DNA from: Alphaproteobacteria bacterium
GTDB taxonomy: Bacteria > Pseudomonadota > Alphaproteobacteria > UBA9655
Reading direction: 5' to 3'
DNA: 64,000 nucleotides
Assembly: GCA_013815465.1 (NCBI GenBank)
Contig: JACDGE010000007.1
Location: 3,001-67,000 of the forward strand
Numbering within the stretch: position 1 is the stretch's first letter; each line of letters opens with the position of its first letter. The notes under the pieces are model-generated. The model saw nothing but the letters and a program-made list of their open reading frames with translations, did no database searches and was not told the DNA's origin. Shown one piece after another: positions 454 to 37,516 of the stretch. A program made the translations under genes and the position numbers.

Positions 454-1656
454 TTATACCCTTCGACTTTCAAGCTTCAGAGGCATTGCCCTGCGGGTCT
501 CTCCCTCGGCCACGTATAAGAATACGCTCCTCTGGTTCGCCGCTTGGGCGCCTACCTGAATTCTTGAAATCCTTTGGGTATGTTTTTCTTGTGCTTGTTC
601 TTGAGGTTTATTGACAACGGTTACTTCTGTACCATCCTGTGCTCTGAATCCTCCAGCCGTGATCACCAGATCTCCTGGTTTGACACCATGGGTGATTTCT
701 ATTTCATTTCCTTCCTGCATCCCCGTACTCACCACAGTCTTTACGGAAACATTATCGACAACAAGCAGGACGTACTCTTCCTCGCCCTCTCTTTCAATTG
801 CTGTGGTAGGCACAAGCACCGCATTTTCAATGGTTCCTGCAAGGACAAGGACACGCGCAAAAAAGCCGGGACGGTAGATAAGTTCCTTATTTGGCATTTC
901 GGCGCGGATAACGACCTGAAGGGTGTCTGCGCTAATTTCAGGGCTAATGGCTTTGATTGTGGCTTCAACAGGTAAAATATCAATGTCTTCAACCGTCACA
1001 TCAACGATATCGCCCTCTTTAATATGGGGGAAAAATGACTCAGGAATGCTAAAATCCACATTAATTGGGTCTAAATCCACAACAGTAGCAAGCTCATTAG
1101 ATGGCGAAATTGCAGCGCCTACACTCACTTCACTTAACCCTATCACCCCTGAAAAAGGCGCTTTTATAATCGTATTCTCGAGGTCGATTTTAGCCAGCGC
1201 CAACTCAGCTTCTTTAACTTGCATATCAGCGAGGGTTTTATCCCGCTGGGCAACGGTCCCAAAGTTTTTTTCTAACAACTTAACCGCCCGACTATGCTCT
1301 TCCTTCGCTTGAGCAAGAGCGGCTTCCGCGCCCATAACTTTTGCTTTGTAAACAGCATCATCTATTTTAAAAAGAGGTGACCCCTCTTTGACTTTTTGTC
1401 CTTCTTTAAAGTATATTTTTGCAATCTTACCTTGCACCTCAGGGTGAAGGATAACAGATTGAATCGGAGAAAGCTTTCCAACCGCGCTGACCCGTCTTAA
1501 CATCGTTCCTGTCTTTGCAGCGACGGCTTCAACAGGAATGGCCTCCCTCGTGTGCACAACAGGAGCGATCTCTTTTCCTTTTTTTAGCCAGAGGATGCCC
1601 GCAACTCCCACCGAGCATAAAACCAAAGCGATTATAACTTTTTGATATGTCTTCAT
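454..1656 (-). CDS. Efflux RND periplasmic adaptor (membrane fusion protein, HlyD/AcrA family); the last 41 codons are encoded by a MITE-like repeat
   Basis: 400-aa ORF with an N-terminal membrane anchor, coiled-coil hairpin segments (AEAALAQAKEEH..., VKEAELALAKIDLENT), and barrel/lipoyl motifs typical of MFPs. It lies directly upstream of the RND permease. Confidence 0.85.
   Translation of the reverse strand: MKTYQKVIIALVLCSVGVAGILWLKKGKEIAPVVHTREAIPVEAVAAKTGTMLRRVSAVGKLSPIQSVILHPEVQGKIAKIYFKEGQKVKEGSPLFKIDDAVYKAKVMGAEAALAQAKEEHSRAVKLLEKNFGTVAQRDKTLADMQVKEAELALAKIDLENTIIKAPFSGVIGLSEVSVGAAISPSNELATVVDLDPINVDFSIPESFFPHIKEGDIVDVTVEDIDILPVEATIKAISPEISADTLQVVIRAEMPNKELIYRPGFFARVLVLAGTIENAVLVPTTAIEREGEEEYVLLVVDNVSVKTVVSTGMQEGNEIEITHGVKPGDLVITAGGFRAQDGTEVTVVNKPQEQAQEKHTQRISRIQVGAQAANQRSVFLYVAEGETRRAMPLKLESRRV
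457..580 (-). mobile_element. MITE-like repeat, copy a (type I core), TA-flanked, embedded in the 3' end of the adaptor ORF
   Basis: Read on the minus strand: TA-CCCAAAGGATTTCAAGAATTCAGGTAGGCGCCCAAGCGG...GAGCGTATTCTTATACGTGG...CTTGAAAGTCGAAGGG-TA. Nearly collinear with the copy at 37393-37516. Confidence 0.7.
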
Positions 1657-1770
1657 TTTTTTGTTCTCTGTTCAAAATAATCTAAAAATTGTATAAATAT
1701 GTTTCATACATAATACCCTATCAGGCAATAGATTAACATATGATAAAGAAAATTTAAGGAAATAAAAAAT

Positions 1771-2415
1771 ATGGCAGGAGCTTTTCCCCTTCATTTTGCA
1801 GAAATTTTGACCTCTCGTTTATGTCACGACTTGATTTCACCCATCAGTGCAATTAATACGGGTCTAGAACTATTTCAAGAAACTTCACCGAACCATCGTA
1901 CAGAATCTGATGAAATTTTAAAGCTTATCTTAAACAGTGCTCACACAGCTTCTGCTCGTGTGAGTTTTTATAGAGTAGCTTTTGGGCGTAGTGGAGGCAG
2001 TATCTCTCTTGGTATGGCCAGGGAATTGATAGAAAAATACTTTCTGCGGAGTAAATTGAAAATCCAATGGAACGATCCTTTTCAAAAAGATTTTGTCTTA
2101 GATGCGGGGGGACGTATTCTATTAAACGCTGTTTTGTGGATGAGTGAGTGTGCCCCACGAGGAGGGCTTCTGCACATAACCACACCTCGAGAGGATGTCC
2201 CCGTTCTTTCTCTTCGCCTCGAAACAGACTCTATTATTTTACACCAAGGTACGGTCGAAGCCTTAGAGGGGAAAGCCCCCCTCCAAGAGATTACACCGCG
2301 AACTGTGCCATGTTATTTAATTCACTGCATTGTTAAAGAAGAACAGGGAAACCTGATGATTAACAAAACATCTTCTCCGTCAGAGCTTGTTTTAGAGGTC
2401 ACAATGAACGAGTGA
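1771..2415 (+). CDS. chpT: Histidine phosphotransferase ChpT-like protein
   Basis: 214 aa. The N-terminal LTSRLCHDLISPISAINTGLELFQE matches the conserved H-box-like helix of alphaproteobacterial ChpT (CckA-ChpT-CtrA phosphorelay), and the size is appropriate. Confidence 0.65.
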   Translation: MAGAFPLHFAEILTSRLCHDLISPISAINTGLELFQETSPNHRTESDEILKLILNSAHTASARVSFYRVAFGRSGGSISLGMARELIEKYFLRSKLKIQWNDPFQKDFVLDAGGRILLNAVLWMSECAPRGGLLHITTPREDVPVLSLRLETDSIILHQGTVEALEGKAPLQEITPRTVPCYLIHCIVKEEQGNLMINKTSSPSELVLEVTMNE

Positions 2416-2577
2416 TAGGGGACCGAGGATGGATTCCTGCGTCTTATTTGTTTTTTGTAACAAAAAATAAAGATTTTTTAAATTCCGGGCTCGCTCCGAG
2501 ATCTAAAAATTATTTAGACATCGCCCGAACTATCATAGGGAGGAAGTTCAAACATATCGTCTCAGGTGTTTCTTATA

Positions 2578-2994
2578 TTACTCTCCAATAACTTCCGGAT
2601 ACTTATCTGGCTGGGAAAGACAATATTCAATAACGGGTTGGGATTCATCATTTTCCTCAACTTCTATAAAATCTACGAATAGACCCTTCGCAAATCCACC
2701 GCGTTCTGCTTGCTTTTGAAGTCGTTTTTTTTCAATATGTTCTACTTGTAAACCATAATATTTAGAAATTGCGTACAAAACCTCGATAACGTCTGAAATT
2801 TCTTCTTTGATGTCTTTTGCAGTGGTCGCACTTAAAACTTCTGCAATTTCTTCTTCGAGCTTTATCTTTAAATGATCGATAAGGTCCCGTGATGTGAGAG
2901 GATAGGCTTCTACGTGAACGCCCATTTTATTCATTCTTTTTGGCATTTTATCCCGAACAAGTGTCTCCATTTTAAAACGTCGTTTAGCTATCAT
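2578..2994 (-). CDS. MazG-like nucleoside triphosphate pyrophosphohydrolase family protein
   Basis: 138 aa. The LVRDKMP start and the EExxExxxxxxxEExxDVIEVL acidic helix pattern are typical of small all-alpha NTP pyrophosphohydrolases. AAGGAG lies upstream of the ATG. Confidence 0.5.
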   Translation of the reverse strand: MIAKRRFKMETLVRDKMPKRMNKMGVHVEAYPLTSRDLIDHLKIKLEEEIAEVLSATTAKDIKEEISDVIEVLYAISKYYGLQVEHIEKKRLQKQAERGGFAKGLFVDFIEVEENDESQPVIEYCLSQPDKYPEVIGE

Positions 2995-3144
2995 CTCACT
3001 GAGCTCCTTTCTTTCTTCTTCTCTCTTCTTTTTACAAATTCATTCTCATAAAAGCAAGGAAGCAATGGGAGGACGCTAGAGAATTCGTTTGCAATGTTAT
3101 TAATATAGATCTATAAATTTTTTTAAATAAAATGGAGGGGCCGG

Positions 3145-3996
3145 ATGTATGTAAAAGTTATTAATTATACTGCCCCACAAGCAGCTCAAGAATTTGCGAG
3201 ATCTTTAAGAGATACAGGGTTTGCTGTGCTTATCAATCACCCAATTTCTCAAAGCCTTGTGAACGCCGTCTACGAGGACTGGAAAAATTTTTTTGCAAAC
3301 GATGCAAAATTTAACTACCTTTTTCTTCCAGATGAAATTCCCCAAAGGGGTTACTTCCCTTTTAAAAGTGAAAGTGCAAAATATCACTCTATAAAGGATC
3401 TTAAAGAATACTATCATTATAGAGATGAAAATGATTTGCCAAGAGAGATGGGAAACAGTACCGAATTCTTCCTTCAAGACATGACCAAGCTTGGAACTGA
3501 AGTCTTACAATGGATTGAAACCAACTTACCCAAAGACATATTTAATGCTCTTTCTATGCCCCTTAGTCAAATGATTCACAAAAGTGACACCAGTGTCATC
3601 CGGTGTCTCCATTATCCTCCCCTTACGGAAGGGGGAACAGAAAATTCTGTTAGAGCTGCTGCACATGAGGATATCGATTTGTTAACAATTTTGCCGGCTG
3701 CAACGGCGCCTGGTCTTCAAGTTCTTGATAGAGAAGGAAATTGGCACGAGGTTCCCTGCGATTCTGGAATGTTAATATTTAATGGCGGAGATATGTTGCA
3801 AGAAGCAACCAAAGGGTACTATAAATCAACAACACATAAAGTTGTTAATCCCGCAGGTGAATTCGCGCACAAACCTCGTTATTCCTTAACCTTGTTTTTG
3901 CAACCTCGAAAGGATGTACGACTTTCAGAAGCCCATACGGCAGAGAGTTATTTTGCAGAACGTTTTAGAGAAAATGGACTCAAGCCAGCAGCTTAA
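3145..3996 (+). CDS. 2-oxoglutarate/Fe(II)-dependent oxygenase (isopenicillin N synthase-like family)
   Basis: 283 aa. Contains AAHEDIDLLTILP (HxD iron ligands), a distal STTHKV His and a downstream R-x-S (PRYSL) motif. GGAGG RBS. Confidence 0.75.
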   Translation: MYVKVINYTAPQAAQEFARSLRDTGFAVLINHPISQSLVNAVYEDWKNFFANDAKFNYLFLPDEIPQRGYFPFKSESAKYHSIKDLKEYYHYRDENDLPREMGNSTEFFLQDMTKLGTEVLQWIETNLPKDIFNALSMPLSQMIHKSDTSVIRCLHYPPLTEGGTENSVRAAAHEDIDLLTILPAATAPGLQVLDREGNWHEVPCDSGMLIFNGGDMLQEATKGYYKSTTHKVVNPAGEFAHKPRYSLTLFLQPRKDVRLSEAHTAESYFAERFRENGLKPAA

Positions 3997-4014
3997 ATTT
4001 TAAAGGAGAATGGT

Positions 4015-4350
4015 ATGACTAAGATGACGTTTATTAAACCAGACGGTGAGCAGATCGAGATTGAGGCGCCGAACGGACTCTCTATCCTCGAAATTGCTCA
4101 TCAAAATAGTGAGAGGCTCTATTTAGAAGGAGCCTGTGAGGGGTCTCTGGCTTGCTCAACCTGCCATGTGGTTATTGATCAGAAGTGGTATGATCTTTTA
4201 ACCCCTGCAACAGAAGATGAAGAAGACATGTTGGATTTGGCTTTTGGCTTGACCCAAACGTCTCGCTTGGGGTGTCAAATTATCATGCGCCCGGAGCTTG
4301 AAGGAATCGTGGTGCGTCTCCCTGCTGCCACACGTAATATGATGGTGTAA
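4015..4350 (+). CDS. 2Fe-2S ferredoxin, adrenodoxin/putidaredoxin type
   Basis: 111 aa. The cluster motif [15 protein letters not shown] plus a distal GCQI cysteine is the characteristic vertebrate-type ferredoxin layout. AAGGAG RBS. Confidence 0.85.
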
Positions 4351-4479
4351 GAGAAAAGGTACATGGGGCAAGACCCCTCAACTTTAACGCTAAGGTATTA
4401 TAACTTCCTGATTACCTACAATACTCAGTAGGGCTTTACAGGAATAATAGCATCCAAAATAAGATTTATTATCCGTAGG

Positions 4480-5428
4480 ATGGTTATCAAGAAAAATACC
4501 GCTCAGTTTCAAAAGGAATTGAGAATTCCGGAGTTTTTGAAGGAATATGAGGATGAGTCCCAATGCTTTAAAGCCTTAGTGGAGATGAGGTGGCACGCAG
4601 GATTTCGGTGTCCTAGATGTGAGTCCCACTCTCCTTGCCGTCTAAAACACGACATACCCTTTTCTAGGGCAATGACTGCCACACTCAGACCCCCGTAATG
4701 GTAGCAACAATTTTCTATTCAGCAAAACTCCCTCTGACCACATGGTTCTTGGCTATCTACTTGATGAGTCAGAGTAAAAATGGTATTTCCCAATTGGAAG
4801 TTGCACGATAGGTTGGCATTTTCCCCCGCACATGAGCGGCGCTTTATCACCAGCTGGCTCAGGTCATGCTGGAGCGCGATATGGATAAGCCATTGTCTCA
4901 TAAGATAGAACTGCACGATGTCTACTAGGGAGGCAAGAAAAAAGGCAAGCGAGGTCGGGGTTCAGAAAATACCCCCCCCTTTAATGCGGTTATTAAGAAT
5001 GATGAGTCAAATCATTCCCAGCCAATCAAGCTACACGCGGTGTACATCTTTAAAAAAAGAGTTTAAAATGGGCGGTCAAGCATTTGCAGACAGGGCTAGT
5101 GCTGACTGCTGATGGTCTCGCCTGTTTTAAGGACATTAAAGATGCAGGGTATGGGCATGAAGTTACTGTTGTAGGAAATGGCCGTGATCCTCAGAAAACC
5201 GCACCATTTAATTGGGTGAATACAGTTCTTGGAAATCCGAAAACTGCCTTGGCGGGGACGTTTCATAAGCTTTCAAAGCCCCTTCTGCCTCGCCATTTGG
5301 CTACTTTTCAATACCGTTTTAATCGACAATTTATACTCGAAGACATGGTTCCAAGGCTGGCCTATGTCTCTTTTAGGATGCCTCCTATGCCAAAAAGGCT
5401 ACTTGTTTTGGCTGAAAATCGTTGGTAA
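4480..5428 (+). pseudogene. Decayed IS1595-family (ISXO2-like) transposase gene
   Basis: The N-terminal zinc-ribbon part (QFQKELRIPEFLKEYEDESQCFKALVEMRWHAGFRCPRCES) and the C-terminal part (ADGLACFKDIKDAGYGHEVTV...FNWVNTVLGNPKTALAGTFHKLSKPLLPRHLATFQYRFNRQFILEDMVPRLAYV) are in different frames. The middle part (AKLPLTTWFLAIYLMSQSKNGIS) is broken by stops. Confidence 0.75.
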
Positions 5429-5563
5429 TGGCCACTGCTGTCGTGTACTTTTACAATTGAAAAAATCAGCACATAGCTCTTGATATTATATTTTAAGTAC
5501 TTACATGTTGTTCATCATCTCTTTTTTGATGTTTTTATTAATTGTTTTTATTTTAAGGATTTT

Positions 5564-6475
5564 ATGATGAGAAAAAAACTTTTTGCTTTAATGCTGAGTT
5601 TAGCTATTTTGACAACCAGCCCCCTATTTGCAATGGATGCGCCCGAAGACGAGCGGCCGGGATTAGGAACCGTACCTAAGTGTGTGTTCACAAATCATCT
5701 CATGAAAGAGCTTGCTCTGCCAGATGTAACCTCAGTCTTTCAGGTTTCAAAAGCATTTTACACACTAAGCGTTGACGAAACTGTTTGGGAGTCTGTTGTT
5801 GCAAAACTAGGACTTAGCTTTGATCCCCATGTAAATTTCAGTATACGAAATCAGCTTCGATCTTTTTGCGAGAATTCCGTGAGTAATCTAACTCAAAAAT
5901 GCAGTATGTCGATGGAAACCCTTCAATCCTTTAGGAAAAATCTTATCCCTGGCTCTAATCCTGTTTCATATGATATTAAAATAGGGAACATCCCTCTCTG
6001 CATGACCTATATACAAGCAAATGATATAGGAACGGGTGCCCATGAGGTACACTTAAATATTGACTTTAGTAAAATTGATAATACCCAAAGGGTAATTTTT
6101 TCTAAGGCCCCTGATCAACATCTCTTCAAGAGTAGGTTTATACTATTGACAAAGGATGATGGCATTGGTGGGATAGTAGACCAGCACGGAATTACTCTTT
6201 CGAGCCCTGAATTTATGAAAAGACTAAACGAAGTTAGTACTAAATTTTCTACAACGATGATACAGGCGTGCACTTTTACAATTACACCAGGTCAACGCGT
6301 TAAACCAATTCAGAAAAAGGTAGCAGAAACGAGAGAGGAAGGACTCGCGCGATTACGACCACAAGCGCTGGCTCTTTTTGATGCTGCTCAAAGTATAGAA
6401 TCTATCGCTCAGGCTCTTTTTCTTCCTGAAGAAACAATTATGGAAATGCTAGGGTTAAATTCTGAAAAGAAGTAA
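5564..6475 (+). CDS. Secreted F-box-like motif protein, paralog A
   Basis: Start chosen at ATGATG 5564 with AAGGA upstream; the track ORF extends further upstream. Leader MMRKKLFALMLSLAILTTSPLFA, then MDAPEDE. F-box-like segment LPDVTSVFQVSKAFYTLSVDETVWESV. Confidence 0.6.
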   Translation: MMRKKLFALMLSLAILTTSPLFAMDAPEDERPGLGTVPKCVFTNHLMKELALPDVTSVFQVSKAFYTLSVDETVWESVVAKLGLSFDPHVNFSIRNQLRSFCENSVSNLTQKCSMSMETLQSFRKNLIPGSNPVSYDIKIGNIPLCMTYIQANDIGTGAHEVHLNIDFSKIDNTQRVIFSKAPDQHLFKSRFILLTKDDGIGGIVDQHGITLSSPEFMKRLNEVSTKFSTTMIQACTFTITPGQRVKPIQKKVAETREEGLARLRPQALALFDAAQSIESIAQALFLPEETIMEMLGLNSEKK

Positions 6476-6853
6476 AAAACCTTAAGGTTATCCAACCCCG
6501 CGAAAGTGGGTCCATTTTTAGCCCCTCGTTTAGGGTGGATGGACCCACAGCACGCCTCTCCATAGGCCCTTGTAGACCAAAAGGGCTCATAAAGGTTGCA
6601 TCTACGAACAATCCCAGGACTGTCATTCTCGAGTCAATGATTCAAAGCATTGAGATCTATGTATGCGCGGATTTTTTGTGTTTATTTTTCTTTGTAAGAG
6701 CTTACGACAGCCACGGAACAGCCGGATGAATTTGATGAGCGCCCAGTTTCTGTTTATCTTTTCTTGCAGAAAAGAAAGAGATAAGCTCTATTAGAGAACT
6801 CAGGTTTCTCTGCAGGTTTAGATGGTTCCATTTCCCACTATCTTATCTTCGTT

Positions 6854-8137
6854 CTACCTAAAGGCGATTAAATCCCCATTGTCCGTCAAAATATAGAGTG
6901 TTTCTTGTGCCACAAAAGGAGCTAATGAGACGGGCGCCCCCACCTCGGTTGTTGAAAGAATTGTTCCATTCGTAGGGTCAAGAGCGACCAGGGCTCCGCT
7001 CGCCTTGACGATATAAAGCTTGTTATTGGCGACGAGTGGTCCATCCCAAATCACTTTATAGGGATGTTCGATATCAGATTCCAACTTCTTTATCCACACA
7101 ACTTGACCATAGTCCCGCGTAAGGCACATGATTTCATTCTGGGAGTTAACCATGAATATAAAGTCGCCGATCACAGCGGGGGTGCGTAATCCCCCAATAC
7201 TTCTCTCCCAAAGCTTTTCCCCGCGTCTTAAATCATAAGCCGCCATTTTTTGATTATAACCGATAATAATCACCGTGTTTTGGTCAATTACAGGGAGAGC
7301 TTTGATGTGTGAAAGAGAGGAAAGGGAATCAGGGCGCTTGGTCGCGCTGAGGGTTTCAGTCCACAGCTGGTGCCCATTTTCTGCTTTAAGAGCATAAATT
7401 TCGCCGGAAGAATAGGTCACAATCACAACCCCCTTAGACACAGCGGGAGAAGCTGTTCCTAGAAGGCCAGCAAATTCCGTGATGCCGGCGTGATCCCATA
7501 GACGTTTTCCGGTTGCCGCATCAAGAACTTCTAGTTGATTGCTGATGGTTAAAACATAAAGCCGCCCATCGGAATATGTAGGGGCTGCGCGAACAGGGCT
7601 TTGGGTTGGAACCCGCCAAAGAATTTTCCCTGATTTTGCATCGAGAGCAAGAACTTCTGCATGGGGTGATGTTACAAAAACTTTTTCTTCTCCAAAAGCA
7701 AGGCCTCCTCCGATAATTGATCCCCCTCGTTCTTCAGGTGAAATGTCGGCTTTCCAGAGAGTTTTGCCGGATGATGCAGACAAGGACCTAACATGCCCCT
7801 CTGTATCAAGGGCATAGATAATTGCTTCCTTAACGATAGGAGAAGACAAAAGTCTCCCATCCCCATTTCCGGCTCCTATAGAGGCCGTCCACTGAGGAGT
7901 GATTGTTTCTTGAAGAGAGAAGTGGGGCATGACGTGTCCTGCGCTGCCCCCCTGCTGCGGCCAATCTCTCCCAAGTTCTGAAAGAGGAAGCATGACGCTC
8001 TTATCTTTCGTATCGAGGTCGACCTTAACGGAGCTTTCATAAGTTACCACAGGAATACGTGTTCCCGTAATGGGAATTTTTGGTGTATCACAGGCCCCCA
8101 AGGCGAGAAGAGGAAAAAGTCCTATAAACTTCCTCAT
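6854..8137 (-). CDS. bamB: Outer membrane protein assembly factor BamB (PQQ-like beta-propeller lipoprotein)
   Basis: Start chosen at MRKFIGLFPLLALGAC (lipobox LALGAC), which overlaps the upstream stop as ATGA. Repeated G-K-xLW / beta-propeller blades (GKTLWKAD, GKILWRVP, GKRLWDHA, GHQLWTET, GEKLWERS). Confidence 0.8.
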   Translation of the reverse strand: MRKFIGLFPLLALGACDTPKIPITGTRIPVVTYESSVKVDLDTKDKSVMLPLSELGRDWPQQGGSAGHVMPHFSLQETITPQWTASIGAGNGDGRLLSSPIVKEAIIYALDTEGHVRSLSASSGKTLWKADISPEERGGSIIGGGLAFGEEKVFVTSPHAEVLALDAKSGKILWRVPTQSPVRAAPTYSDGRLYVLTISNQLEVLDAATGKRLWDHAGITEFAGLLGTASPAVSKGVVIVTYSSGEIYALKAENGHQLWTETLSATKRPDSLSSLSHIKALPVIDQNTVIIIGYNQKMAAYDLRRGEKLWERSIGGLRTPAVIGDFIFMVNSQNEIMCLTRDYGQVVWIKKLESDIEHPYKVIWDGPLVANNKLYIVKASGALVALDPTNGTILSTTEVGAPVSLAPFVAQETLYILTDNGDLIAFR

Positions 8138-8793
8138 TGTTGAACCCCGGTACTGTTTGCTTCTTCCCATAGTAAGGGGGGGATATCAATTTGAGATAGC
8201 ATCATTCCTGCCCGTAATGTTTCATCAGGTGTGAGGGAGGTCTCCTTTAAAATCCTAATATAGAGCTTGGCTGCGCTTACGGAATCTCCTCTTTTTAAAT
8301 CGGCTAAAGCCAGCAATTCGAGAGAGAGAGGCGCCCAAGCATTATTAGGAGCTGTTAAAGGTTCTAGAGGTGTCAAAACTTCGGGCTTATCAAGAGCACG
8401 AGCGGCCATTAAGATCTTTGGTAATTTACCCAATGCAGGATCGGCAACATTTTCTTGAGAAATTTTTGTGTATAGAGCTTCTGGGTCAGGTAGAAGAGAC
8501 GCTTCATAAAGCTGTGCAATCTTACCGTATCCCCCCCCTTCTACCGCCAAGTCATGAAAGGCTTTGAGAGCTTCCTCTTTTTTTCCTAGCTTAATAAGCT
8601 CAACGGCTTGAAAGAAAGAAACATGCTTCCTAACTTGGGCTTTATTTTTCAGATATTGCCAAAGCACGTAAGCGGATGTTGCAATCACAATGGCTACTGC
8701 TAGCCCAATTATATAGTTTCCATACTTATGCCAAAAATTAAGGATTCGTTCTTCACGAATATCTTCTTCCAGCTCTTTAAAAAAATCAGACAT
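8134..8793 (-). CDS. YfgM-like membrane-anchored TPR protein
   Basis: 219 aa with one TM helix near the N-terminus (NYIIGLAVAIVIATSAYVLW) followed by a helical repeat region. The conserved position directly upstream of bamB matches the E. coli order yfgM-bamB. Confidence 0.55.
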   Translation of the reverse strand: MSDFFKELEEDIREERILNFWHKYGNYIIGLAVAIVIATSAYVLWQYLKNKAQVRKHVSFFQAVELIKLGKKEEALKAFHDLAVEGGGYGKIAQLYEASLLPDPEALYTKISQENVADPALGKLPKILMAARALDKPEVLTPLEPLTAPNNAWAPLSLELLALADLKRGDSVSAAKLYIRILKETSLTPDETLRAGMMLSQIDIPPLLWEEANSTGVQQ

Positions 8794-8988
8794 GATTCAG
8801 GCTCCATTTTTCTAGACCACCATAATTTAAGATGCACCGTTGGTAAAGGTTAATTCAACATGCCCCAAACGGGTGCGGCATATTTGCATAAAAAATTTAC
8901 AGGGATGCTCCACAAAAATAAACCATAGAAAATTCCTTCCAGGAAATGTATGTTAAGAAAAAGAGAAGGCGAGGAGCATAACATACCC

Positions 8989-9303
8989 ATGGACATCATT
9001 CTTATCCCCCTACTTGCTGTCATGAGAGCAGTCCTTGGCATTTATTCTTGGATTGTCATTGTAAGTGTTATCATGAGTTGGCTTATTAACTTTAATGTTA
9101 TTAATTCACATAATAACTTTGTGCTCATGCTCATTGAATTTCTTTACAGGATGACTGAGCCTGTTCTCATGAAAATTCGCCGCGTCGTTCCTATTATCAG
9201 TGGGTTTGATCTATCGCCCATTATTTTGATTATAATATTATGGTTTTTACAAGCTGTTATTGCCCGACTCATGATGAGAGTTTTAGTGGGGGGTAGTGTC
9301 TAA
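8989..9303 (+). CDS. yggT: YggT family membrane protein
   Basis: VIMSWL...LYRMTEPVLMKIRRVVPIISGFDLSPIIL matches the YggT signature. Start set at the internal MDIILIPLL; the upstream extension of the track ORF is uncertain. Confidence 0.7.
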   Translation: MDIILIPLLAVMRAVLGIYSWIVIVSVIMSWLINFNVINSHNNFVLMLIEFLYRMTEPVLMKIRRVVPIISGFDLSPIILIIILWFLQAVIARLMMRVLVGGSV

Positions 9304-10165
9304 AATTATCGATGGCCGTATAGTTGCGGCAGAAAAAAAAGAACAACTCTCTGCGTTAGCCAAGACTCTTGAAGAAAAGACAGGGATTAAACCAGGCCTT
9401 GCTGTTTTGAGAGTGGGAGACGATCCCGCAAGTCAACTCTATGTTAACATGAAGGGAATTCACTCTAGAGAGCTAGGCTATCATTTTGAAGAGCATGTTT
9501 TTCCAGCGTGGACTCCGTCAGAAGTGTTGGAGCAGAGAATCAAAGAACTTAACGAAGCGAATCATGTCCATGGGATCATCCTTCAGCTTCCTCTGCCTCT
9601 TGGTTTAGATAAGTTTTATTTTCTCTCTCTTATTGATCCCGCTAAAGATGTCGATGGTTTACATCCCCTCAATGCGGGAAAATTTTTTCAAGGAATAGGG
9701 GGAGGATTTGTTCCTTGTACGCCTCTCGGGTGTCTTGAGCTCATCAAAACTGTTCACAATGACTTGGAAGGGCTGAATGCATGCGTTGTTGGACGTTCTC
9801 TCCTTGTCGGACTACCCATGGCGGCTTTGTTGCTGCAGCAAAATTGTACTCTATCGATTGCTCATTCGAAAACCCAAAACTTGCCGGCTCTCTGTAAGGC
9901 GGCGAATATCCTTGTTGTTGCCATTGGAAGTCCTCGTTTTATCCCAGGAGAATGGATTCAAAAGGGAGCAACAGTAATTGATGTCGGAATCAATCGGCTT
10001 CCTACAGGGGAGCTTGCGGGAGATGTTGATTTTGCGAGTGCTCGATTAAGAGCGGGGGCTATTACACCCGTTCCCGGTGGGGTAGGTCCCATGACGGTTG
10101 TTTCCCTTCTCCGCAACACCTTAGAGGCAGCTTTTCATTATGCAGGCGAACCTTTCCCTCTTTAA
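9296..10165 (+). CDS. folD: Bifunctional methylenetetrahydrofolate dehydrogenase/methenyl-THF cyclohydrolase
   Basis: 289 aa with a GTG start. LAVLRVGDDPASQLYVNMK, DVDGLHPLNAGK, VVGRSLLVGLPMAALL and PVPGGVGPMTV are classic FolD blocks. Confidence 0.92.
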   Translation: MSKIIDGRIVAAEKKEQLSALAKTLEEKTGIKPGLAVLRVGDDPASQLYVNMKGIHSRELGYHFEEHVFPAWTPSEVLEQRIKELNEANHVHGIILQLPLPLGLDKFYFLSLIDPAKDVDGLHPLNAGKFFQGIGGGFVPCTPLGCLELIKTVHNDLEGLNACVVGRSLLVGLPMAALLLQQNCTLSIAHSKTQNLPALCKAANILVVAIGSPRFIPGEWIQKGATVIDVGINRLPTGELAGDVDFASARLRAGAITPVPGGVGPMTVVSLLRNTLEAAFHYAGEPFPL

Positions 10166-10864
10166 AAAATTCGTAGATCTTTTAATCCCTTTCAGGTGCG
10201 CGAAGTGCGGAACCATTTTGGAAAATCGTCATGGGCTCTGTGCAGATTGTTGGACACTCATTCCTTTTATCACAGAGCCTATTTGCGATTGTTGTGGACT
10301 TCCCTTTGATTTTGAAATTGAAGATGGGGCCCTTTGTGGGAGGTGTAGTCATGTCCATCCGCCTTACACAACAGCCCGTTCTGTCTTTGTTTATACGCCT
10401 CAAAGTAAAGACCTTATCTTGAAGTTTAAACATACGGATAGTGTTCATTCTGCTCCTCTTTTTGCGGAGTGGATGGCGCGGCTGGTGAAGGGCGCTGAAA
10501 ATCCCCTTTGTATCCCTGTTCCTCTCCATTGGACGCGCCTTTTTATGAGAACCTACAACCAAGCTGGCCTTCTAGCGCGAAACATTGCGAAATACAACGA
10601 TTGGACTTATGCGCCTTCTCTTTTGATTCGAAAGCGACGGACCCCTTCTCAAGGACATTTTTCAAAAGCCGAGCGGGTCAAAAATATTAAGGGGGCATTT
10701 ATTGTCCGCGAGGGAAAAAAAACGAACTTTTGGGGAGGTCCGTGGTTCTGGTGGATGACGTTTTTACAACAGGCGCAACCCTGAATGCCTGTTCTAAAAC
10801 GTTGTTGAAGGCGGGTGCGAAAGAGGTGCATGCCTTAACCCTAGGAAGGGTTGTGAAGGGGTAA
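10140..10864 (+). pseudogene. comF: ComF-family phosphoribosyltransferase-like gene, interrupted by a frameshift in an A8 run
   Basis: The N-terminal double zinc-finger (CAKCGT...CADCW...CDCCGLPF...CGRC) is in the track frame. The conserved PRT C-terminus [42 protein letters not shown] is in the -1 frame after A8 at 10715-10722. Confidence 0.7.
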
Positions 10865-10867
10865 TGA

Positions 10868-11012
10868 TACCCTGGGGCTTTTAGGTTTCGGGAGCGTGCC
10901 ATTCGGATCCCGCCCTCAGGCCCGTAGAAGAATACGCTCATGGGGCTCACTACTCGAGCGCCTACCCAGTTCCCCGCCTTCGCGAGGACAAGCCTTGAAA
11001 TTCTTTAAGTAT
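10868..11012 (-). mobile_element. MITE-like repeat, copy b (composite of type I core plus type II module), TA-flanked
   Basis: Minus-strand reading: TA-CTTAAAGAATTTCAAGGCTTGTCCTCGCGAAGGCGGGGAACTGGGTAGGCGC...GAGCGTATTCTTCTACGG...AGCCCCAGGG-TA. Starts 4 nt after the comF stop. Confidence 0.6.
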
Positions 11013-14210: not shown

Positions 14211-15215
14211 CTATAGCTTCGCCATCGCTAGAGCCGTATCAGCCATACGATTGGAAAAACCCCACTCATTATCGTACCAGGATAAAATCCGACAGAATGT
14301 CCCGTTCACCACGTGAGTCTCACTTAAATCAAAGATTGAGCTCGCTGAATTGTGGTTGAAATCGATAGAAACCAGGGGCTCATTATTAACGGCGAGCACA
14401 CCCTGTAGCTCACCTTCTGCAGCTTCTGCCATCAGATTGTTAATTTCCGCTTGAGAGGTTGCACGCTTCGCTTCAAAGGTTAAATCCACTAAAGAAACGT
14501 TGGCTGTGGGCACACGAACGGCTGTGCCATCCAGTTTTCCCTTTAATTCAGGGAGAACTAACCCGACGGCTTTTGCCGCACCTGTTGAGGCAGGAATTAG
14601 GGAAAGGCCAGCAGCCCGCGCGCGCCGCAAATCCGTGTGGAGTGTATCAACAATGTTTTGATCTCCCGTATAGGAATGGATAGTTGTCATAAATCCGTGC
14701 TGAATGCCGATGGTCTTGTTCAGAATATAAGCTACAGGTGCTAAACAGTTTGTCGTGCAGGATGCATTGGAAACAATTTTGTGTTCAGGCTTTAATTCCT
14801 TGTGGTTCACGCCCCAGACGACTGTTAAGTCAGCCCCTTCTGCTGGAGCGGAAATAAGAACTTTTTTAGCCCCAGCTGTCAGATGCTTTGCCGCAGCGTC
14901 CCGTTTGGTAAACCGTCCTGAACACTCCATCACGACATCAATGCCAAGATCTGACCAGGGCAGGGTGGCCGGATCGGGATTAGCAAAAACTTTTATGGAG
15001 TGACCATTAATTTTGAGGCCATCAGATAAGGTTTCCACCGTTCCAGGGAAAGGCCCATGAACGGAATCATATTTGAAAAGGTGGGCATTATCTGCGATAG
15101 AGCCTAAGTCATTGATCGCAACAACCTCGATGTCAGAACGACGGTTTTCCATAATGGCCCGTAAGACCAAACGTCCAATGCGCCCAAATCCGTTAATAGC
15201 AACTTTACATGTCAT
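14211..15215 (-). CDS. gap: Type I glyceraldehyde-3-phosphate dehydrogenase
   Basis: 334 aa. INGFGRIGR, the SNASCTTNCLAP active site, and WYDNEWGFSNR. Confidence 0.95.
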   Translation of the reverse strand: MTCKVAINGFGRIGRLVLRAIMENRRSDIEVVAINDLGSIADNAHLFKYDSVHGPFPGTVETLSDGLKINGHSIKVFANPDPATLPWSDLGIDVVMECSGRFTKRDAAAKHLTAGAKKVLISAPAEGADLTVVWGVNHKELKPEHKIVSNASCTTNCLAPVAYILNKTIGIQHGFMTTIHSYTGDQNIVDTLHTDLRRARAAGLSLIPASTGAAKAVGLVLPELKGKLDGTAVRVPTANVSLVDLTFEAKRATSQAEINNLMAEAAEGELQGVLAVNNEPLVSIDFNHNSASSIFDLSETHVVNGTFCRILSWYDNEWGFSNRMADTALAMAKL

Positions 15216-21379: not shown

Positions 21380-21469
21380 TGCCCAAAGGATTTCAAGAAT
21401 TCGGGCTGGCGCCCAAGCGGCTAGCCCGCAAGGCAACGCCGCCGACCCCTGAAAGCCGAAGTGCAGGTA
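21380..21469 (+). mobile_element. MITE-like repeat, copy c (short type I variant)
   Basis: TGCCCAAAGGATTTCAAGAATTCGGGCTGGCGCCCAAGCGGC...CCCGCAAGGCAACGCC...CCTGAAAGCCGAAGTGCAGG-TA. It lacks the central GAGCGTATTCTTATACGTG block. Confidence 0.55.
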
Positions 21470-28190: not shown

Positions 28191-28276
28191 GGAGGGATGG
28201 CCGAGCGGTCAAAGGCAGCAGACTGTAAATCTGCCGACGAACGTCTACGCAGGTTCGAATCCTGCTCCCTCCACCA
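28191..28276 (+). tRNA. tRNA-Tyr (GTA), class II with long variable arm, CCA encoded
   Basis: Acceptor GGAGGGA/TCCCTCC, anticodon arm GCAGA-CTGTAAA-TCTGC, T arm GCAGG-TTCGAAT-CCTGC, folded by hand. Confidence 0.9.
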
Positions 28277-28287: not shown

Positions 28288-28392
28288 TACCCAAAGGATT
28301 TCAAGGCTTGTTCCCGTCCTCGCAAAAGCGGGGAACACGGTGAACAGGGCGGGCGCTACCGCAACGCCTCTCACACTTGAAAGACTCAGGGG
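28288..28392 (+). mobile_element. MITE-like repeat, copy d (type II core)
   Basis: TA-CCCAAAGGATTTCAAGGCTTGTTCCCGTCCTCGCAAAAGCGGGGAAC...CTTGAAAGACTCAGGGG. It fills almost the whole tRNA-Tyr/tRNA-Gly spacer. Confidence 0.65.
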
Positions 28393-28399
28393 ATTTTGA

Positions 28400-28473
<74 letters not shown>

Positions 28474-28495
28474 TGAATTTGATGAGGATAGAATT

Positions 28496-29686
28496 ATGGC
28501 AAAAGAAAAGTTTGAGCGGAAGAAGCCGCATTGTAACATTGGAACGATTGGTCATGTGGACCATGGGAAGACGACCTTAACGGCGGCGATAACAAAAGTG
28601 TTATCGTTGACGGGTGGCGCGGTGTTTACAGGTTATGACATGATTGACAAGGCGCCGGAAGAAAGAGCGCGGGGGATCACCATCTCGACAGCCCACGTTG
28701 AGTATGAAACGCCCGATCGTCACTATGCGCACGTTGATTGTCCCGGACACGCGGACTACGTGAAGAACATGATCACGGGTGCAGCTCAAATGGATGGTGC
28801 GATTCTGGTTGTGAATGCGGCCGATGGTCCGATGCCTCAGACTCGCGAACACATTTTGCTTGCGCGCCAAGTTGGTGTTCCCGCTCTTGTTGTCTTTATG
28901 AACAAAGTGGATCAGGTTGATGATCCTGAGCTGATAGAATTGGTTGAGATGGAAATTCGTGAATTGCTGACTTCTTATGGTTTTCCAGGGGATGATATTC
29001 CGATTGTGAAAGGATCCGCCTTGTGTGCCTTAGAAGGCCGTGAGGATCCCATTGGAAAAGATGCGATTATGGAGTTGATGACGGCTGTTGATACGTATAT
29101 TCCCCAGCCCGAGAGAGCGCTGGACAAACCCTTTTTGATGCCGATTGAAGACGTGTTTTCTATCTCTGGCCGTGGTACGGTTGTGACGGGGCGTGTTGAG
29201 AACGGAATTGTCAAAGTTGGAGAAGAAGTAGAAATTATTGGTTTGAAGGCGACGGTGAAGACGACAGTGACGGGCGTTGAAATGTTCCGTAAGCTGTTGG
29301 ATCAAGGTCAAGCGGGCGATAACGTTGGTGCGCTTCTTCGAGGAACCAAGAGAGAAGACGTGGAGCGTGGGCAAGTTTTGGCAAAGCCAGGAAGTATCAC
29401 GCCGCACACGAACTTCAATTGTGAAGCTTATATTTTGAAGAAAGAAGAAGGTGGTCGTCATACGCCCTTTTTTGGGAACTATCGTCCTCAGTTTTACTTC
29501 CGTACGACGGATGTGACAGGGACGGTGAAGTTACCGGATGGGGTAGAGATGGTGATGCCTGGAGACAATGTAACGATGGAAGTTGAGCTGATTGCTCCAA
29601 TTGCCATGGATGAAGGTCTTCGTTTTGCGATCCGCGAGGGTGGCCGTACAGTTGGTGCGGGCGTCGTCGCTTCCATCAAGAAGTAA
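28496..29686 (+). CDS. tuf: Elongation factor Tu (copy 1, tufB-type context)
   Basis: 396 aa. [22 protein letters not shown]. The protein is identical to the copy at 51232-52422. Confidence 0.98.
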
Positions 29687-29760
29687 GGAATTCACGGGTC
29701 AGGATTCAGAGGTTGGGGGTCAGAAGAGATCCTATCTCTGATTCCTGATTCCTGTTATGT

Positions 29761-31497: not shown

Positions 31498-31887
31498 TTA
31501 TGTCGTTTTATCGTAAACAGTGTTGTGTACATAAATATTAATTAGTAATTAAAGTAAATATTTAAAGGGGCGAGCCTATTAATTGTACATTTTTAGACCT
31601 TCAGCCCCTCGCCTTCAGCCGGTCAATCGAAGTTTTTCTAATAATCTGTGGATGTTTTTTGGGTTGTGTAAAGGTTCTCTTGCGTAAAATACAGCGGCTG
31701 CTTCTCATTATTATTATTAATAATTAACCAAAAACATTGCTGGACACGCTCATTATAATTTACTTCTTTATTATATATTTGCCAGCTCACTACCCCATGA
31801 TTTTTTTGAGGTAGGAAAGAAGGGCTCGAAAAGTTTCATAAAATTCTAGATCTTTAGTTTGACAAAAAACAAAAAGAAAGAAAAACT

Positions 31888-32100
31888 ATGGATCTCGCGG
31901 CCCTTCTCGAAAGATATCAAACCCTATTACCCTGAAATTTGGCAAGAACAAAATGCTTTGTGAGCATGATTTTAGGAATGATTGCCTCAGGATCAGTCCA
32001 ACAACACAAGACCGCCCTTGGATTTACAGGAACTGCCAAACAAAAATCTGTTTGTACCCGAATCTCTAATTTCTTAAAAACATTCGACTTCATCTATTAA
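31888..32100 (+). pseudogene. IS4-family-like transposase N-terminal remnant (in-frame TGA at 31933-31935)
   Basis: MDLAALLERYQTLLP*NLARTKCFVSMILGMIASGSVQQHKTALGFTGTAKQKSVCTRISNFLKTF resembles the N-terminal W-N-x-A-R...V-x-L...A-x-x-F-x-G-x-A-K-x-x-S...R-x-x-x-F pattern of IS4-type transposases. The inverted copy reads TGG (Trp) at the stop position. Confidence 0.5.
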
Positions 32101-32152
32101 TCATGTTATACGTGGATTAAATTATGTTGTATTTAATAAATTAAATTTTACG

Positions 32153-32593
32153 ATGATGAAAAATTTCTTATTATGCATTTGCTTAAGTTTAACTATAAGC
32201 ACCGCCAAAGCGATGGAGGAGGAACATAGTCCTCTCTCACCGACCTATAGACCCGTTTTCAGACAAGGCTTTTCGATGCAAGACCTTGGACGATGCGCGC
32301 AAGTAAGCCGTCAGTGGAATGAGCATTCAGCCGATAATTTTTTTTGGGATCCAATCGCCCAAGATTATGGAAACTTTCATGGGTTTCCAACCACATTGGA
32401 TTTCAGTAGGATACCTAAGAAATGGAAAGACATGATGCACCGCACGCTAACTCATAGGATAGCTCCACACAGTCTAGTCACTCCCACCTTAACGTATAAA
32501 AGGGTAGAAAATTTTAAGAAGCGTCAAGAAATTGATCCAAAGTTCAAACCGACTGCTTTGGACATAATCTCTAATAGTAGAATTGTGTTGTAA
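32153..32593 (+). CDS. Secreted F-box-like motif protein, paralog D (short)
   Basis: 146 aa. Leader MMKNFLLCICLSLTISTAKA, then MEEEHS. It has the clearest F-box-like segment: FSMQDLGRCAQVSRQWNEHSADNFFWDPI. Confidence 0.6.
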   Translation: MMKNFLLCICLSLTISTAKAMEEEHSPLSPTYRPVFRQGFSMQDLGRCAQVSRQWNEHSADNFFWDPIAQDYGNFHGFPTTLDFSRIPKKWKDMMHRTLTHRIAPHSLVTPTLTYKRVENFKKRQEIDPKFKPTALDIISNSRIVL

Positions 32594-33005
32594 CTTACGT
32601 CCGCATTGGCATCAAAACATAAAGAGCTGATGTATCCGCCCCGTCTTTCGCAATAATGGCTTGGGTTTCATCCCCAATGAGCAGCTGTAATGAAGGGCTG
32701 GAAATTTGCTGTGTCACGTCAAGAAACATTTTATTCTTGCCAAATTCCAGGGTAATAGGGTGCGATATCTTTCGAGAAGGGCCGCGAGATCCATAGTATT
32801 TCTTTCTTTTTGTTTATTGCTAAACTAAAGATCTAAAATTTTATAAATCTTTTCAATCCCTTCTTTCCTGCCTCAAAAAATCATGGGGTAGTGAGATTTG
32901 CCAGTATAGAGACCCTCTGCTTATTATAGAGGGCATTATCGCTCGATTACATACGAATAATTTTGCGGACACTTAAAAGAGGTCAGAGTTTCCTTAGATA
33001 TTCCT

Positions 33006-34482: not shown

Positions 34483-34545
34483 AAAACATTTGTAATTTAG
34501 ATTAAACCCTGCTAAGAAAGGGTGGAGTTAACCCGGAAAAGGACT

Positions 34546-34743: not shown

Positions 34744-34748
34744 GACAA

Positions 34749-35288: not shown

Positions 35289-35358
35289 CCCTGTATAAGG
35301 GCTACTGCGGGAGGCGTGCCATCGCCGTACCGCAAACTCAAAGAAGAAGGAGTAAAAA

Positions 35359-35787
35359 ATGGCAAAGAAAATTGAAGGCTATATTAAGCTGCAGATTCCT
35401 GCAGGAAAAGCAAATCCATCGCCCCCCGTTGGGCCAGCTCTTGGGCAGCGTGGACTCAATATTATGGAATTCTGTAAGGCATTTAATGCCCAAACACAGA
35501 GTATGGAGCCAGGCATACCTATCCCCGTAGTTATTACAGCGTATGGTGATAGGACGTTTAGCTTTGTTACGAAAACCCCCCCTGTGAGCTACTTCTTAAA
35601 AAAAGCGGCAGGACTTACAAAAGGATCTGCCACTGCAGGAGCAGGAACTATAGGAAAAGTAACAATGGAACAAGTTCGTGAGATTGCAAAGACGAAGATG
35701 CAAGATCTCAATGCAAATGACATTGAGGGAGCATCCCAGATGATCGTAGGGTCTGCCCGTTCTATGGGCATTGAGGTAGTGGAGTAA
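35359..35787 (+). CDS. rplK: 50S ribosomal protein L11
   Basis: 142 aa. [35 protein letters not shown]. Confidence 0.97.
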
Positions 35788-35792
35788 AGAAA

Positions 35793-36479
35793 ATGGCAGG
35801 AAAACGGATTCGTAATGCTTATGAAGGACTTGATTCTTTATCCCATTATAGTGTAAAAGAGGCTATTCGCGTCGTAAAGAAGCGGGCAACAGCAAAATTT
35901 GATGAAACAATTGAATTGGCTATGAATTTAAATGTTGATCCTCGAAAGTCGGAACAAAATATACGTGGTGTCACCCAATTGCCAGCAGGAACGGGTAAAA
36001 CCCTCCGTGTTGCTGTTTTTGCTAAAGGAGCAAAGGCAGAAGAGGCAAAAAAAGCTGGTGCAGATATTGTGGGAGACGAAGATTTAGCTGAAAAAATTCA
36101 AGGAGGCGAAATTAATTTTGATCGCTGCATTGCAACGCCGGATATGATGGGTCTTTTAGGAAAGCTTGCTCGCATATTAGGGCCCCGAGGGCTTATGCCG
36201 AATCCAAAACTGGGCACAGTTACGATGGATGTGGGTGAAGCTGTAAAGGCTGCAAAAGGCGGTCAGGTGGAGTATCGTGCAGAAAAAGCAGGAATCGTTC
36301 ATGCGGGAATCGGAAAAGTTAGTTTTTCAGAGGAAGATATTGAGAGAAACTTGCGTTCTTTCGTGGATGCGATTATGAAGGCTAAACCTACTGGTGTAAA
36401 AGGGGCATATGTAAAAAATATTTCTCTTTCATCAACCATGGGGCCATCCGTAAGGATTGAGATTGCTGATTTAACATAA
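35793..36479 (+). CDS. rplA: 50S ribosomal protein L1
   Basis: 228 aa. [24 protein letters not shown] and [10 protein letters not shown]. Confidence 0.97.
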
Positions 36480-36733
36480 TTACCGCGTGAGCGGTGATGA
36501 GGGAATACCATTTCCCTCAACCTGTCCAAGACTGTGGGGATCATATATCCGCAGCTTAAAAGCTGAAGGGCAACGCCCCTGAAGCTCGAAAGCCAAAGGA
36601 TAGAGGTTTAAGGCGAAAGCCCCTACATAGACGGGAGAGTCGAAATGAGAGTGCGGCAGCCTCAAAATGACGATTTTCGCGGACGGGACGACCCAGTGAG
36701 AACTGGTTTTTAGTGTAACCTAATCTTTGGTTA

Positions 36734-36841
36734 TGCCCAAAGGATTTCAAGGCTTGTCCCTTAGCTCATGGCGGGGGGCTCCTAGATCCCCATGTTCCCC
36801 GCTTTTGCGAGGACGGGGACAGACTTGAAAGGCTGAAGGTT
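36734..36841 (+). mobile_element. MITE-like repeat, copy e (type II core with the internal module inverted relative to copy d)
   Basis: TGCCCAAAGGATTTCAAGGCTTGTCCC...GTTCCCCGCTTTTGCGAGGACGGGGACAGACTTGAAAGGCTGAAGG. The GTTCCCCGCTTTTGCGAGGACGGG block is the reverse complement of the block in copy d. Confidence 0.65.
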
Positions 36842-36859
36842 TATTCCAAGGATTAACAA

Positions 36860-37381
36860 ATGGAGACGTACATGGACCGTAGCGAAAAAGAACAGCTGGT
36901 CTCGTCTTTGCGTCAAGACCTTTCAGAGTCGAGTTTGGTCATTGTTGCCCAACAAACAGGGTTGACAGTGGCACAAGTCTCCGACTTGAGGCGTCAGATG
37001 CGTGAAGCGGGTGCACAGTACAAGGTTGCCAAAAATACATTGGCGCGCTTGGCTATTGCAGGTACAGAAAATGAACTTATGACAAGTTTCCTTTCTGGGC
37101 CAACAGCATTGGCTTATTCTAAAGATCCTGTTGCGGCTGCAAAGGTAACGATAAAATTTGCTAACACCAATGACAAATTCAAGGTAGTTGGAGGCTCACT
37201 CAACGGTAGGATTTTAAATGCTAAAGAAATTGAAAACCTATCCAAGCTTCCTCCGTTGAACGAATTGAGAGCAAAAATTATTGGTATTATTTCAACGCCT
37301 GCCACACGTGTGGCTGGTGTTTTGCAGGCGCCTGCAGGCCAATTGGCCCGGGTGTTTTCTGCTTATGGAAAAAAAGCTTAA
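36860..37381 (+). CDS. rplJ: 50S ribosomal protein L10
   Basis: 173 aa, with the typical L10 N-terminus (DRSEKEQLVSSLRQDLSES) and position before rplL. The start may be the second ATG at 36872. Confidence 0.93.
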   Translation: METYMDRSEKEQLVSSLRQDLSESSLVIVAQQTGLTVAQVSDLRRQMREAGAQYKVAKNTLARLAIAGTENELMTSFLSGPTALAYSKDPVAAAKVTIKFANTNDKFKVVGGSLNGRILNAKEIENLSKLPPLNELRAKIIGIISTPATRVAGVLQAPAGQLARVFSAYGKKA

Positions 37382-37392
37382 ATGACCCAATA

Positions 37393-37516
37393 TACCCAAA
37401 GAATTTCAAGAACTAGGGTAGGCGCCCCAAGGGGGAGTGAGAGGAACGTATCCTTATACGTGATCAAGCATGACTCGCGACGAGCAACGACCCGGATACT
37501 TGAAAGGCTAAGGGTA
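37393..37516 (+). mobile_element. MITE-like repeat, copy f (type I core), TA-flanked
   Basis: TA-CCCAAAGAATTTCAAGAACTAGGGTAGGCGCCCCAAGGGGG...GGAACGTATCCTTATACGTG...CTTGAAAGGCTAAGGG-TA. It fills most of the rplJ-rplL spacer. Confidence 0.7.

Follow-up and report, generated by a model that had tools for sequence, protein, structure and literature searches.

The 64,000-nt stretch of an uncultured alphaproteobacterial genome analysed here (assembly GCA_013815465.1, contig JACDGE010000007.1, positions 3,001–67,000; hereafter the window) carries a dispersed family of short palindromic repeats. These repeats are probably miniature transposable elements with inverted repeats (MITEs) that insert at TA, duplicate the TA and are moved in trans by a transposase of the IS630/Tc1-mariner type. 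The unit measures ~124 nt, TACCCAAAGGATTTCAAG...CTTGAAAGGCGAAGGGTA, and has no coding capacity; its terminal inverted repeats are 16–25 nt long, its interior is composed of hairpins, and the whole forms one long imperfect rod. An initial reading made from the letters of the window (the sequence-only reading) had proposed a non-autonomous mobile family, and this is borne out: the copies are short and non-coding with terminal inverted repeats, relatives have empty sites, and the family recurs in several genomes, with near-identical copies in one metagenome-assembled genome (MAG). We infer both the TA duplication itself and an IS630-type transposase as the mover, the partner transposase being a candidate only. 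The family has not been described before, and a literature text search for the element's sequence strings and accessions gave no match; the kind of element, a TA-flanked bacterial MITE, is itself established.

The sites of three window copies, named here by their first position, are empty in relatives: the rplJ-rplL spacer (copy 37393), the loop of an rplJ-leader hairpin (copy 36734) and the stop codon of an RND efflux adaptor gene (copy 457). These copies are therefore insertions and not conserved leaders. The rplJ-rplL spacer is 159 nt long in the window and 32–33 nt in the loci of seven relatives. The closest relative, L049 (L10 95% identical), has a copy in the same spacer at another point; in L049 the box GACCC is on the right of the insertion, in the window on its left. 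Copy 36734 occupies the loop of a hairpin CCTTGG-loop-CCAAGG, which all seven relatives possess without the insertion. A conserved leader or terminator structure, the alternative that the sequence-only reading had itself named, was ruled out by the empty orthologous sites.

The rplJ leader holds a further family member, remnant 36544, whose 5' end is of the same derived ...GCAG... variant as that in L032, where a full-length degenerate copy occupies the same point of the leader. At this site a trace of CCAAAGGATTT is present in L050 and L052, and L028, L033 and L048 are empty. In the consensus leader fold, both rplJ leader insertions lie within hairpin loops. The leader as such (36480–36871) is conserved in relatives, with a predicted multi-hairpin fold and a terminator-like hairpin plus T-run at 36693–36711; it has no match to any Rfam family, and its modelled fold looks like an L10 autoregulatory or attenuator leader.

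At the adaptor gene the consequence of insertion can be read in the protein, which has 400 aa here and 352–357 aa in its top homologues (roughly 70–82% identity). In two relatives the stop codon TAG comes right after GAAAAA, where the window reads GAAAAA-CA-TA-CCC..., and the relatives' stop position is the left junction of copy 457. The open reading frame (ORF) crosses the entire copy, giving a 42-codon in-frame C-terminal extension and a regenerated TAA 2 nt ahead of the pump gene ATG. For a recent MAG copy, no clean polymorphic empty site was obtained, the nearest homologue of the flanking HisC-like gene product being just 76% identical.

The extent of the inserted unit was assessed by excising copies under three models and comparing the remaining lengths with those of relatives' empty sites. 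A 120-nt core with a TA duplication left +5 nt at the rplJ-rplL spacer, +4 at the leader loop and +3 at the L032 leader site; 124 nt without duplication left +3, +2 and +1; and 124 nt with a TA duplication left +1, 0 and −1, respectively. At the adaptor site, the last model alone restores ...GAA AAA TAA at the relatives' stop position. The length bookkeeping and the restored stop therefore favour an element of 124 nt, TACCC...GGGTA, plus a putative duplicated TA. On this comparison, the TA adjoining CCC...GGG would be part of the element itself, and the TA that was duplicated would be its outer neighbour. The adaptor extension stays in frame because the insertion then amounts to 124 + 2 = 126 nt, or 42 codons.

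The flanks were tabulated across 15 copies: in 11 a TA directly adjoins the left edge of the core and in 10 the right edge, the TA frequency of the window being 5.5%. TA on both sides, as previously claimed for copies 457, 10868 and 37393, indeed directly adjoins CCC...GGG there. Copy 28288 has an adjoining TA on the left only, copy 36734 has TG and TT next to its core with TA one step farther out, and copy 21380 has TG and CA at the core edges. The next outer dinucleotide is TA in 9/15 copies on the left and 7/15 on the right, and the five copies derived from database peptides read Y-TQRISRI...RRRV-Y or stop, corresponding to TATA flanks. These counts and the peptide-derived copies together indicate that the usual form is therefore TATA-core-TATA.

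The ends described in the sequence-only reading are present, and the two are imperfect inverted repeats of each other, with 10 of 16 end positions pairing in the canonical copy; in the MAG copy L027 pairing is perfect. Four exact occurrences of the 5' motif CCAAAGGATTTCAAG were counted, in addition to a one-mismatch match in 37393 and a three-mismatch match in 10868; the chance expectation for the exact 15-mer is ~1e-4 in 128 kb. Allowing up to three mismatches, the 3' motif CTTGAAAGNCNAAGGG has 25 matches against 8.2 expected, a number reached in none of 100 shuffles. The terminal inverted repeats shared by the copies are CCCAAAGGATTTCAAG and CTTGAAAGNCGAAGGG.

Folding of the consensus gave −52.8 kcal/mol (z = −4.8) as a single imperfect rod. 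Covariation was tested on ten canonical copies from five genomes, with shuffles (n = 500) and slid controls. Overall, 95.3% of cells pair, and 11 pairs are changed on both sides, against 2.3 in shuffles (11 reached in 0/500) and no more than 2 in slid controls. Compensatory changes include GCCC/GGGC to AACC/GGTT in two MAGs and, in the central hairpin, CGTAT/ATACG to GCGTAG/CTACGC; the hairpin of an optional interior segment (module 2) covaries as well (CGCGAAGGCG, CGAGAACTCG, CGCAAAAGCG). The rod fold has thus been kept, by compensatory changes, in the lineages that produced the copies. The top strand folds 5–9 kcal/mol better than the bottom strand in 14/15 copies; since the copies are homologous, this advantage is one inherited property and not 15 observations. 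Window copies are mostly sense to their neighbouring genes, and 6/8 copies in other genomes are antisense; orientation bias as a sign of RNA function was ruled out, there being no overall bias across the window and the other genomes.

The interiors are modular, as had been noted. Module 1 is placed as described, in 457, 37393 and 10868 and partly in 21380. Compared with canonical copies, long copies carry module 2 as an extra hairpin of 21–26 nt immediately inside the 5' end. It stands inside the left end in 28288, 10868, 63891 and L004 and inside the right end in 36734, where its inversion is confirmed: 28309–28343 and 36787–36821 are 91% reverse-complementary over 35 nt. When it is read from the nearest end towards the interior, module 2 has a constant polarity, ...TTTCAAG-nCT-GTCCCCGTCCTCGCAAAAGCGGGGAAC. 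The outermost 9 nt of 36734 retain the usual left and right types, and L027 has two left-type ends. For interiors that had been called recombined or nested, recombination or inversion across the inverted ends would fit the arrangement better than nesting, because the polarity of module 2 is constant relative to the adjoining end; in Correia elements, inversion of the interior has been reported (PMC10969869). An origin of module 2 by nested insertion was set aside, the subterminal hairpin keeping its polarity relative to the nearest end.

Beyond the window, no fewer than five other assemblies of uncultured alphaproteobacteria carry the element. One genome per species was scanned for exact termini, and full-length copies were recovered in the uncultured Alphaproteobacteria MAGs CAZSAH01 (n = 5), JABDDK01 (1) and CAZQWE01 (1); the remaining 20 loci were chance matches in coding DNA. 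The metagenome scan added L042 and also L037, a member with a different interior and the same ends and central hairpin, and contigs of relatives reached via L10 yielded full-length copies in L032 and L049. The CAZSAH01 copies are 92–99% identical to one another, and their type shares 88% identity with copy 457. In a HMMER search against 1.84 billion representative proteins, the 41-residue peptide of copy 457 had five real matches only, so the family is rare in public data; one database protein, the membrane protein P0126, carries the element at its C-terminus. The plasmid collection held no match to the element, and exact-terminus scans of viral contigs gave chance matches in coding DNA only. 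With Rfam 15, only tRNAs reached the gathering score in the window, and the copies themselves gave nothing at E ≤ 1 save one chance-level match (16 bits, E 0.38).

Two loci among these genomes have a particular layout. On CAZSAH01 contig L006 (1386–2732), a HisC-like aminotransferase gene lies between two near-identical direct copies in a composite-looking arrangement. The divergent member at L037 4340–4444 lies between convergent genes and is centred in a 12+12-nt palindrome (AAAAAGCATATT / AATATGCTTTTT) that is perfect.

The window itself holds eight family members, ~1 per 8 kb (Table 1). The six copies listed in the sequence-only reading stand with their coordinates and strands, although six was not the total, two more having been found. 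A repeat finder relates 457 to 37393 over 128 nt and 457 to 10868 over 70 nt. The window copies are 61–72% identical to one another and, by this divergence, appear to be old and decaying; their GC content is 51–63%, versus 44% for the window. Copy lengths range over 86–145 nt, and open frames arise only via read-through from host genes. In the consensus 3/6 frames are open, which ~11% of shuffles match, so that a coding excess is not significant. No promoters or terminators were found within the copies.

Table 1. Members of the element family in the window.
Type	Position	Strand	Context or score
Canonical 124-nt copy, TACCC...GGGTA	457..580	-	Inside ORF 454..1656(-), RND efflux adaptor; nhmmer E 1.5e-36
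Long-type copy, module 2 hairpin after 5' end	10868..11011	-	nhmmer E 1.1e-18
Internally deleted, decayed copy	21380..21465	+	nhmmer E 1.9e-09
Short copy: 5' end, module 2, small hairpin, 3' end	28288..28393	+	Folding energy (dG) -44.4, z -4.6
Remnant with internal deletion	36544..36606	+	Loop of rplJ leader; nhmmer E 1.9e-04; absent from earlier list
Copy with module 2 at right end	36734..36841	+	In hairpin loop just 5' of rplJ ribosome-binding site
Canonical but diverged 124-nt copy	37393..37516	+	rplJ-rplL spacer; nhmmer E 2.7e-32
Degenerate long-type copy with module 2	63891..64000	+	Over adk 3' end; absent from earlier list

Copy 10868 separates a ComF-like gene from a thiolase gene and runs antisense to the two. 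Copy 21380 is in the divergent secA / Bax1-I intergenic region and ends ~20 nt ahead of the Bax1-I start codon, and copy 28288 occupies the spacer between tRNA-Tyr (28191–28276) and tRNA-Gly (28400–28473). Copy 63891 continues for ~24 nt past the window end, as read in contig JAITZQ010115495.1, and supplies the final 16 codons of adk.

No transposase lies in the window, in agreement with the sequence-only reading: none was found among the 20 ORFs scanned, and the others are ribosomal and RNA polymerase genes. Over the regions that they share, the window is 99.99% identical to contigs of assembly GCA_020064125.1, one of which, L063, extends the view to the left. It carries an IS630-family transposase gene in two ORFs at 14609–15351, ~3.0–3.7 kb left of window position 1. 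The first ORF (14609–14950) matches HTH_Tnp_IS630 and has an A8 run near its end; the second follows, and the gene is cut off by the end of the contig (JAITZQ010180506.1). In tblastn the transposase shows 36–40% identity to IS630-family elements of Neochlamydia and Synechocystis. An enzyme of a suitable kind is thus encoded in the genome, by the IS630-family gene 3.0 kb from the window.

The ends of this one IS630 copy could be compared at its one visible end, the other being lost at the contig end. The neighbouring IS630 was set aside as the parent element, its visible end being mismatched. Just upstream of the transposase, L063 14386–14490 is GC-rich and palindrome-rich and loosely resembles the 5' part of the MITE. 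Near copies elsewhere we examined 49 ORFs; the 25 families listed of 84 were mostly housekeeping, plus one PD-(D/E)XK 'transposase' family. The proposed link to IS630 is carried by the TA flanks and by the IS630-family gene ~3 kb outside the window, whose visible end lacks the terminal repeat of the element.

In the mechanism that we propose, a trans-acting DDE transposase of the IS630/Tc1-mariner type would bind the inverted ends only, and insertion would take place at TA, preferably in TATA-like runs, with the TA duplicated. Interiors could then vary as they do (canonical, module 2 added, deleted, or module 2 at the other end) because only the ends would be bound. Self-folding and an open frame would let copies persist where harm is small, and the tolerated places would be the rplJ leader loops, the tRNA spacer, intercistronic spacers and the TA of stop codons, the last giving the 42-residue in-frame extension.

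Several observations weigh against a TA-duplicating element of the IS630 type. TA and TATA are palindromic and could belong to the inverted repeat instead of a duplication; flanks alone therefore cannot tell a duplication from a longer inverted repeat. Among the young CAZSAH01 copies, 2/5 have a non-TA outer dinucleotide on one side, the divergent copy L037 has T...A flanks, and the L049 copy (565–702) has ATGAC on both sides (ATGAC...ATGAC), which looks like a 5-nt direct repeat at odds with a TA duplication, on a contig that stops 9 nt past the element, where an assembly artefact is possible. The L10 of the empty-site relatives is just 88–92% identical, and the flanks are not alignable base for base. 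The 300 nt upstream of the L063 transposase contain neither a CCCAAAGGATTTCAAG-like repeat nor either MITE end. When 596 Gb of genomes, the metagenome collection and viral contigs were scanned for exact termini, no autonomous element with matching ends was recovered, the hits being MITE copies and chance matches in coding DNA only. Finally, an end-binding transposase would not need the whole rod to be kept, and its compensatory maintenance hints at a role for a folded single strand.

The failure to find a partner with matching ends, whether in the genome and metagenome scans or in the IS630 neighbour, would also be expected of a palindromic selfish element of the type of Rickettsia palindromic elements (RPEs) or ERIC, unrelated to IS630, in which the TA is part of the element and copying proceeds without duplication, for example by recombination or a gene-conversion-like process. 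Like RPEs, the element occurs as in-frame protein extensions, and its hosts are alphaproteobacteria, apparently eukaryote-associated in view of an F-box-like protein, with Holosporales as the nearest named relatives of one carrier MAG. At the L032 leader site, moreover, the 124-nt model without duplication fits about equally well (+1 vs −1 nt). The duplication model fits the other two sites better, however, and it alone returns the adaptor stop to its ancestral position; nor does a random-site, no-duplication model predict the outer TA, seen at the two frequencies given above and in 4/5 peptide-derived copies. We therefore regard an RPE- or ERIC-like origin as unlikely.

The maintained whole-element rod and the better-folding top strand are likewise what a REPIN-like or IS200/IS605-type element would show, in which a Y1/RAYT enzyme reads the hairpin of a folded single strand and inserts it at a TATA-like target without duplication, and a GTAG tetranucleotide does occur inside the left arm. 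Yet the symmetric GTAG/CTAC pair is not present, none of the 20 scanned window ORFs matches a Y1 transposase family, and the gene nearby is an IS630 transposase and not a Y1 enzyme. The symmetric TATA flanks differ from the asymmetric target and cleavage sites of IS200/IS605, and the length bookkeeping favours a 2-nt duplication, which makes this mechanism improbable. A strong fold with covariation, and the sense placement of most window copies in transcribed non-coding regions (rplJ leader, tRNA spacer, operon spacers), could also point to functional structured RNAs (leaders, processing signals or small RNAs) at orthologous sites instead of mobile DNA. This is very improbable and largely refuted by the empty orthologous sites; in addition, the copy of the closest relative lies elsewhere in the same spacer, most copies in other genomes are antisense to their neighbours, no Rfam family matches, and the genomic contexts are unrelated. 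A MITE family moved by an IS630/Tc1-mariner-type transposase remains the preferred reading.

The Correia/NEMIS elements of Neisseria and RUP of Streptococcus pneumoniae are IS630-linked MITEs of 100–200 nt, non-coding and TA-flanked, with terminal inverted repeats. Like them, the present elements are mostly intergenic, often co-transcribed and form RNA hairpins; unlike them, they reside in uncultured alphaproteobacteria, form a multi-hairpin rod with compensatory changes, and contain no promoter- or terminator-like sites that we found. The ERIC/IRU elements of enterobacteria are imperfect palindromes of ~127 nt that are co-transcribed with their neighbours and vary in a stem-preserving manner. 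They resemble our elements in size, palindrome and stem-preserving variation but differ in sequence and hosts; RNase E effects have been cited for ERIC (PMC10969869).

RPEs are palindromic repeats of ~100–150 nt in intracellular Alphaproteobacteria, and the likeness to them is one of behaviour and description. They are tolerated within genes as in-frame additions (PMC10969869), and here the RND adaptor is extended, the adk C-terminus replaced, and the element found at database protein termini. In contrast to RPEs, the insertions are at gene ends (stop-codon TA) and not mid-gene, and there are clear terminal inverted repeats and TA/TATA flanks. Among the Submariner MITEs (Tc1/mariner) of Pandoravirus salinus and Acanthamoeba, 8/30 copies extend a predicted ORF 5' or 3' (PMC4495683); TA flanks, a nearly palindromic structure and ORF extension are shared by analogy only, those elements being 243 bp long, eukaryotic or viral, and apparently unrelated in sequence. 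REPINs are also ~100-nt hairpins of two inverted halves that are abundant between genes, but they are RAYT-dependent and lack TA flanks or target duplication, whereas here there is no symmetric GTAG and no RAYT in the 20 ORFs. By analogy, then, the element appears closest in behaviour to Correia, RUP and ERIC, and closest to RPEs in its tolerance in gene ends and structured RNA.

The gene content of the window is alphaproteobacterial, with tRNA-Tyr, tRNA-Gly, tuf, tRNA-Trp, secE-nusG-rplKAJL-rpoBC and the str, S10 and spc operons. Homologues of its L10 at 76–95% identity are numerous, all from metagenome bacteria. The nearest named relatives of the CAZSAH01 HisC-like protein are in the Holosporales Caedimonas and Nucleicultrix, at 44–47% identity. 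The F-box-like protein encoded in the window suggests a life with a eukaryote. Its 146-aa ORF (32153–32593) forms part of a locus at 31786–32895, between 162-nt inverted repeats (31802–31963 / 32719–32880) that are 90% complementary; a perfect 21-nt inverted repeat lies outside these, and the GC content is low (37–39%). The locus could be a mobile or invertible cassette with a eukaryote-like effector.

Other features of the window were recorded alongside. A gene for a 317-aa N-acetylmuramoyl-L-alanine amidase (Amidase_2) stands between rpoB and rpoC (42260–43213), as it does in L033 and not in L028 or L032. The tuf gene is present in duplicate (28496–29686 and 51232–52422), and the first 300 nt are 100% identical, suggesting gene conversion. 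A 429-aa ORF at 22411–23700(-) has weak phage-integrase (tyrosine recombinase) domains and overlaps opposite-strand ORFs.

The family does not reveal a new kind of system. It does explain a series of annotation oddities, namely the 400-aa adaptor, the altered adk C-terminus, the 159-nt rplJ-rplL spacer, the enlarged rplJ leader and the filled tRNA-Tyr/tRNA-Gly spacer. At its density in the window, the family may form a noticeable share of the genome and could serve as a strain-typing marker for this uncultured clade. It adds a further non-Rickettsia case in which coding ends and structured RNA tolerate a palindromic element, and the compensatory changes that maintain its fold touch on the question of whether MITE hairpins have a role in transposition or as RNA.

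A more speculative idea, which we hold with little confidence, is that the element is shaped for harmless insertion in a compact symbiont genome, its fold and frame having been selected in master copies. When the element lands in the TA of a stop codon (TAA or TAG), the consensus frame then used is open in either orientation, with a stop regenerated at the element's far end, and the rod fold may let the element sit in loops of structured RNA (rplJ leader, tRNA spacer) without breakage. If true, the element would count as an RPE-like 'protein- and RNA-compatible' transposon, offering such symbionts a way to acquire new protein tails.

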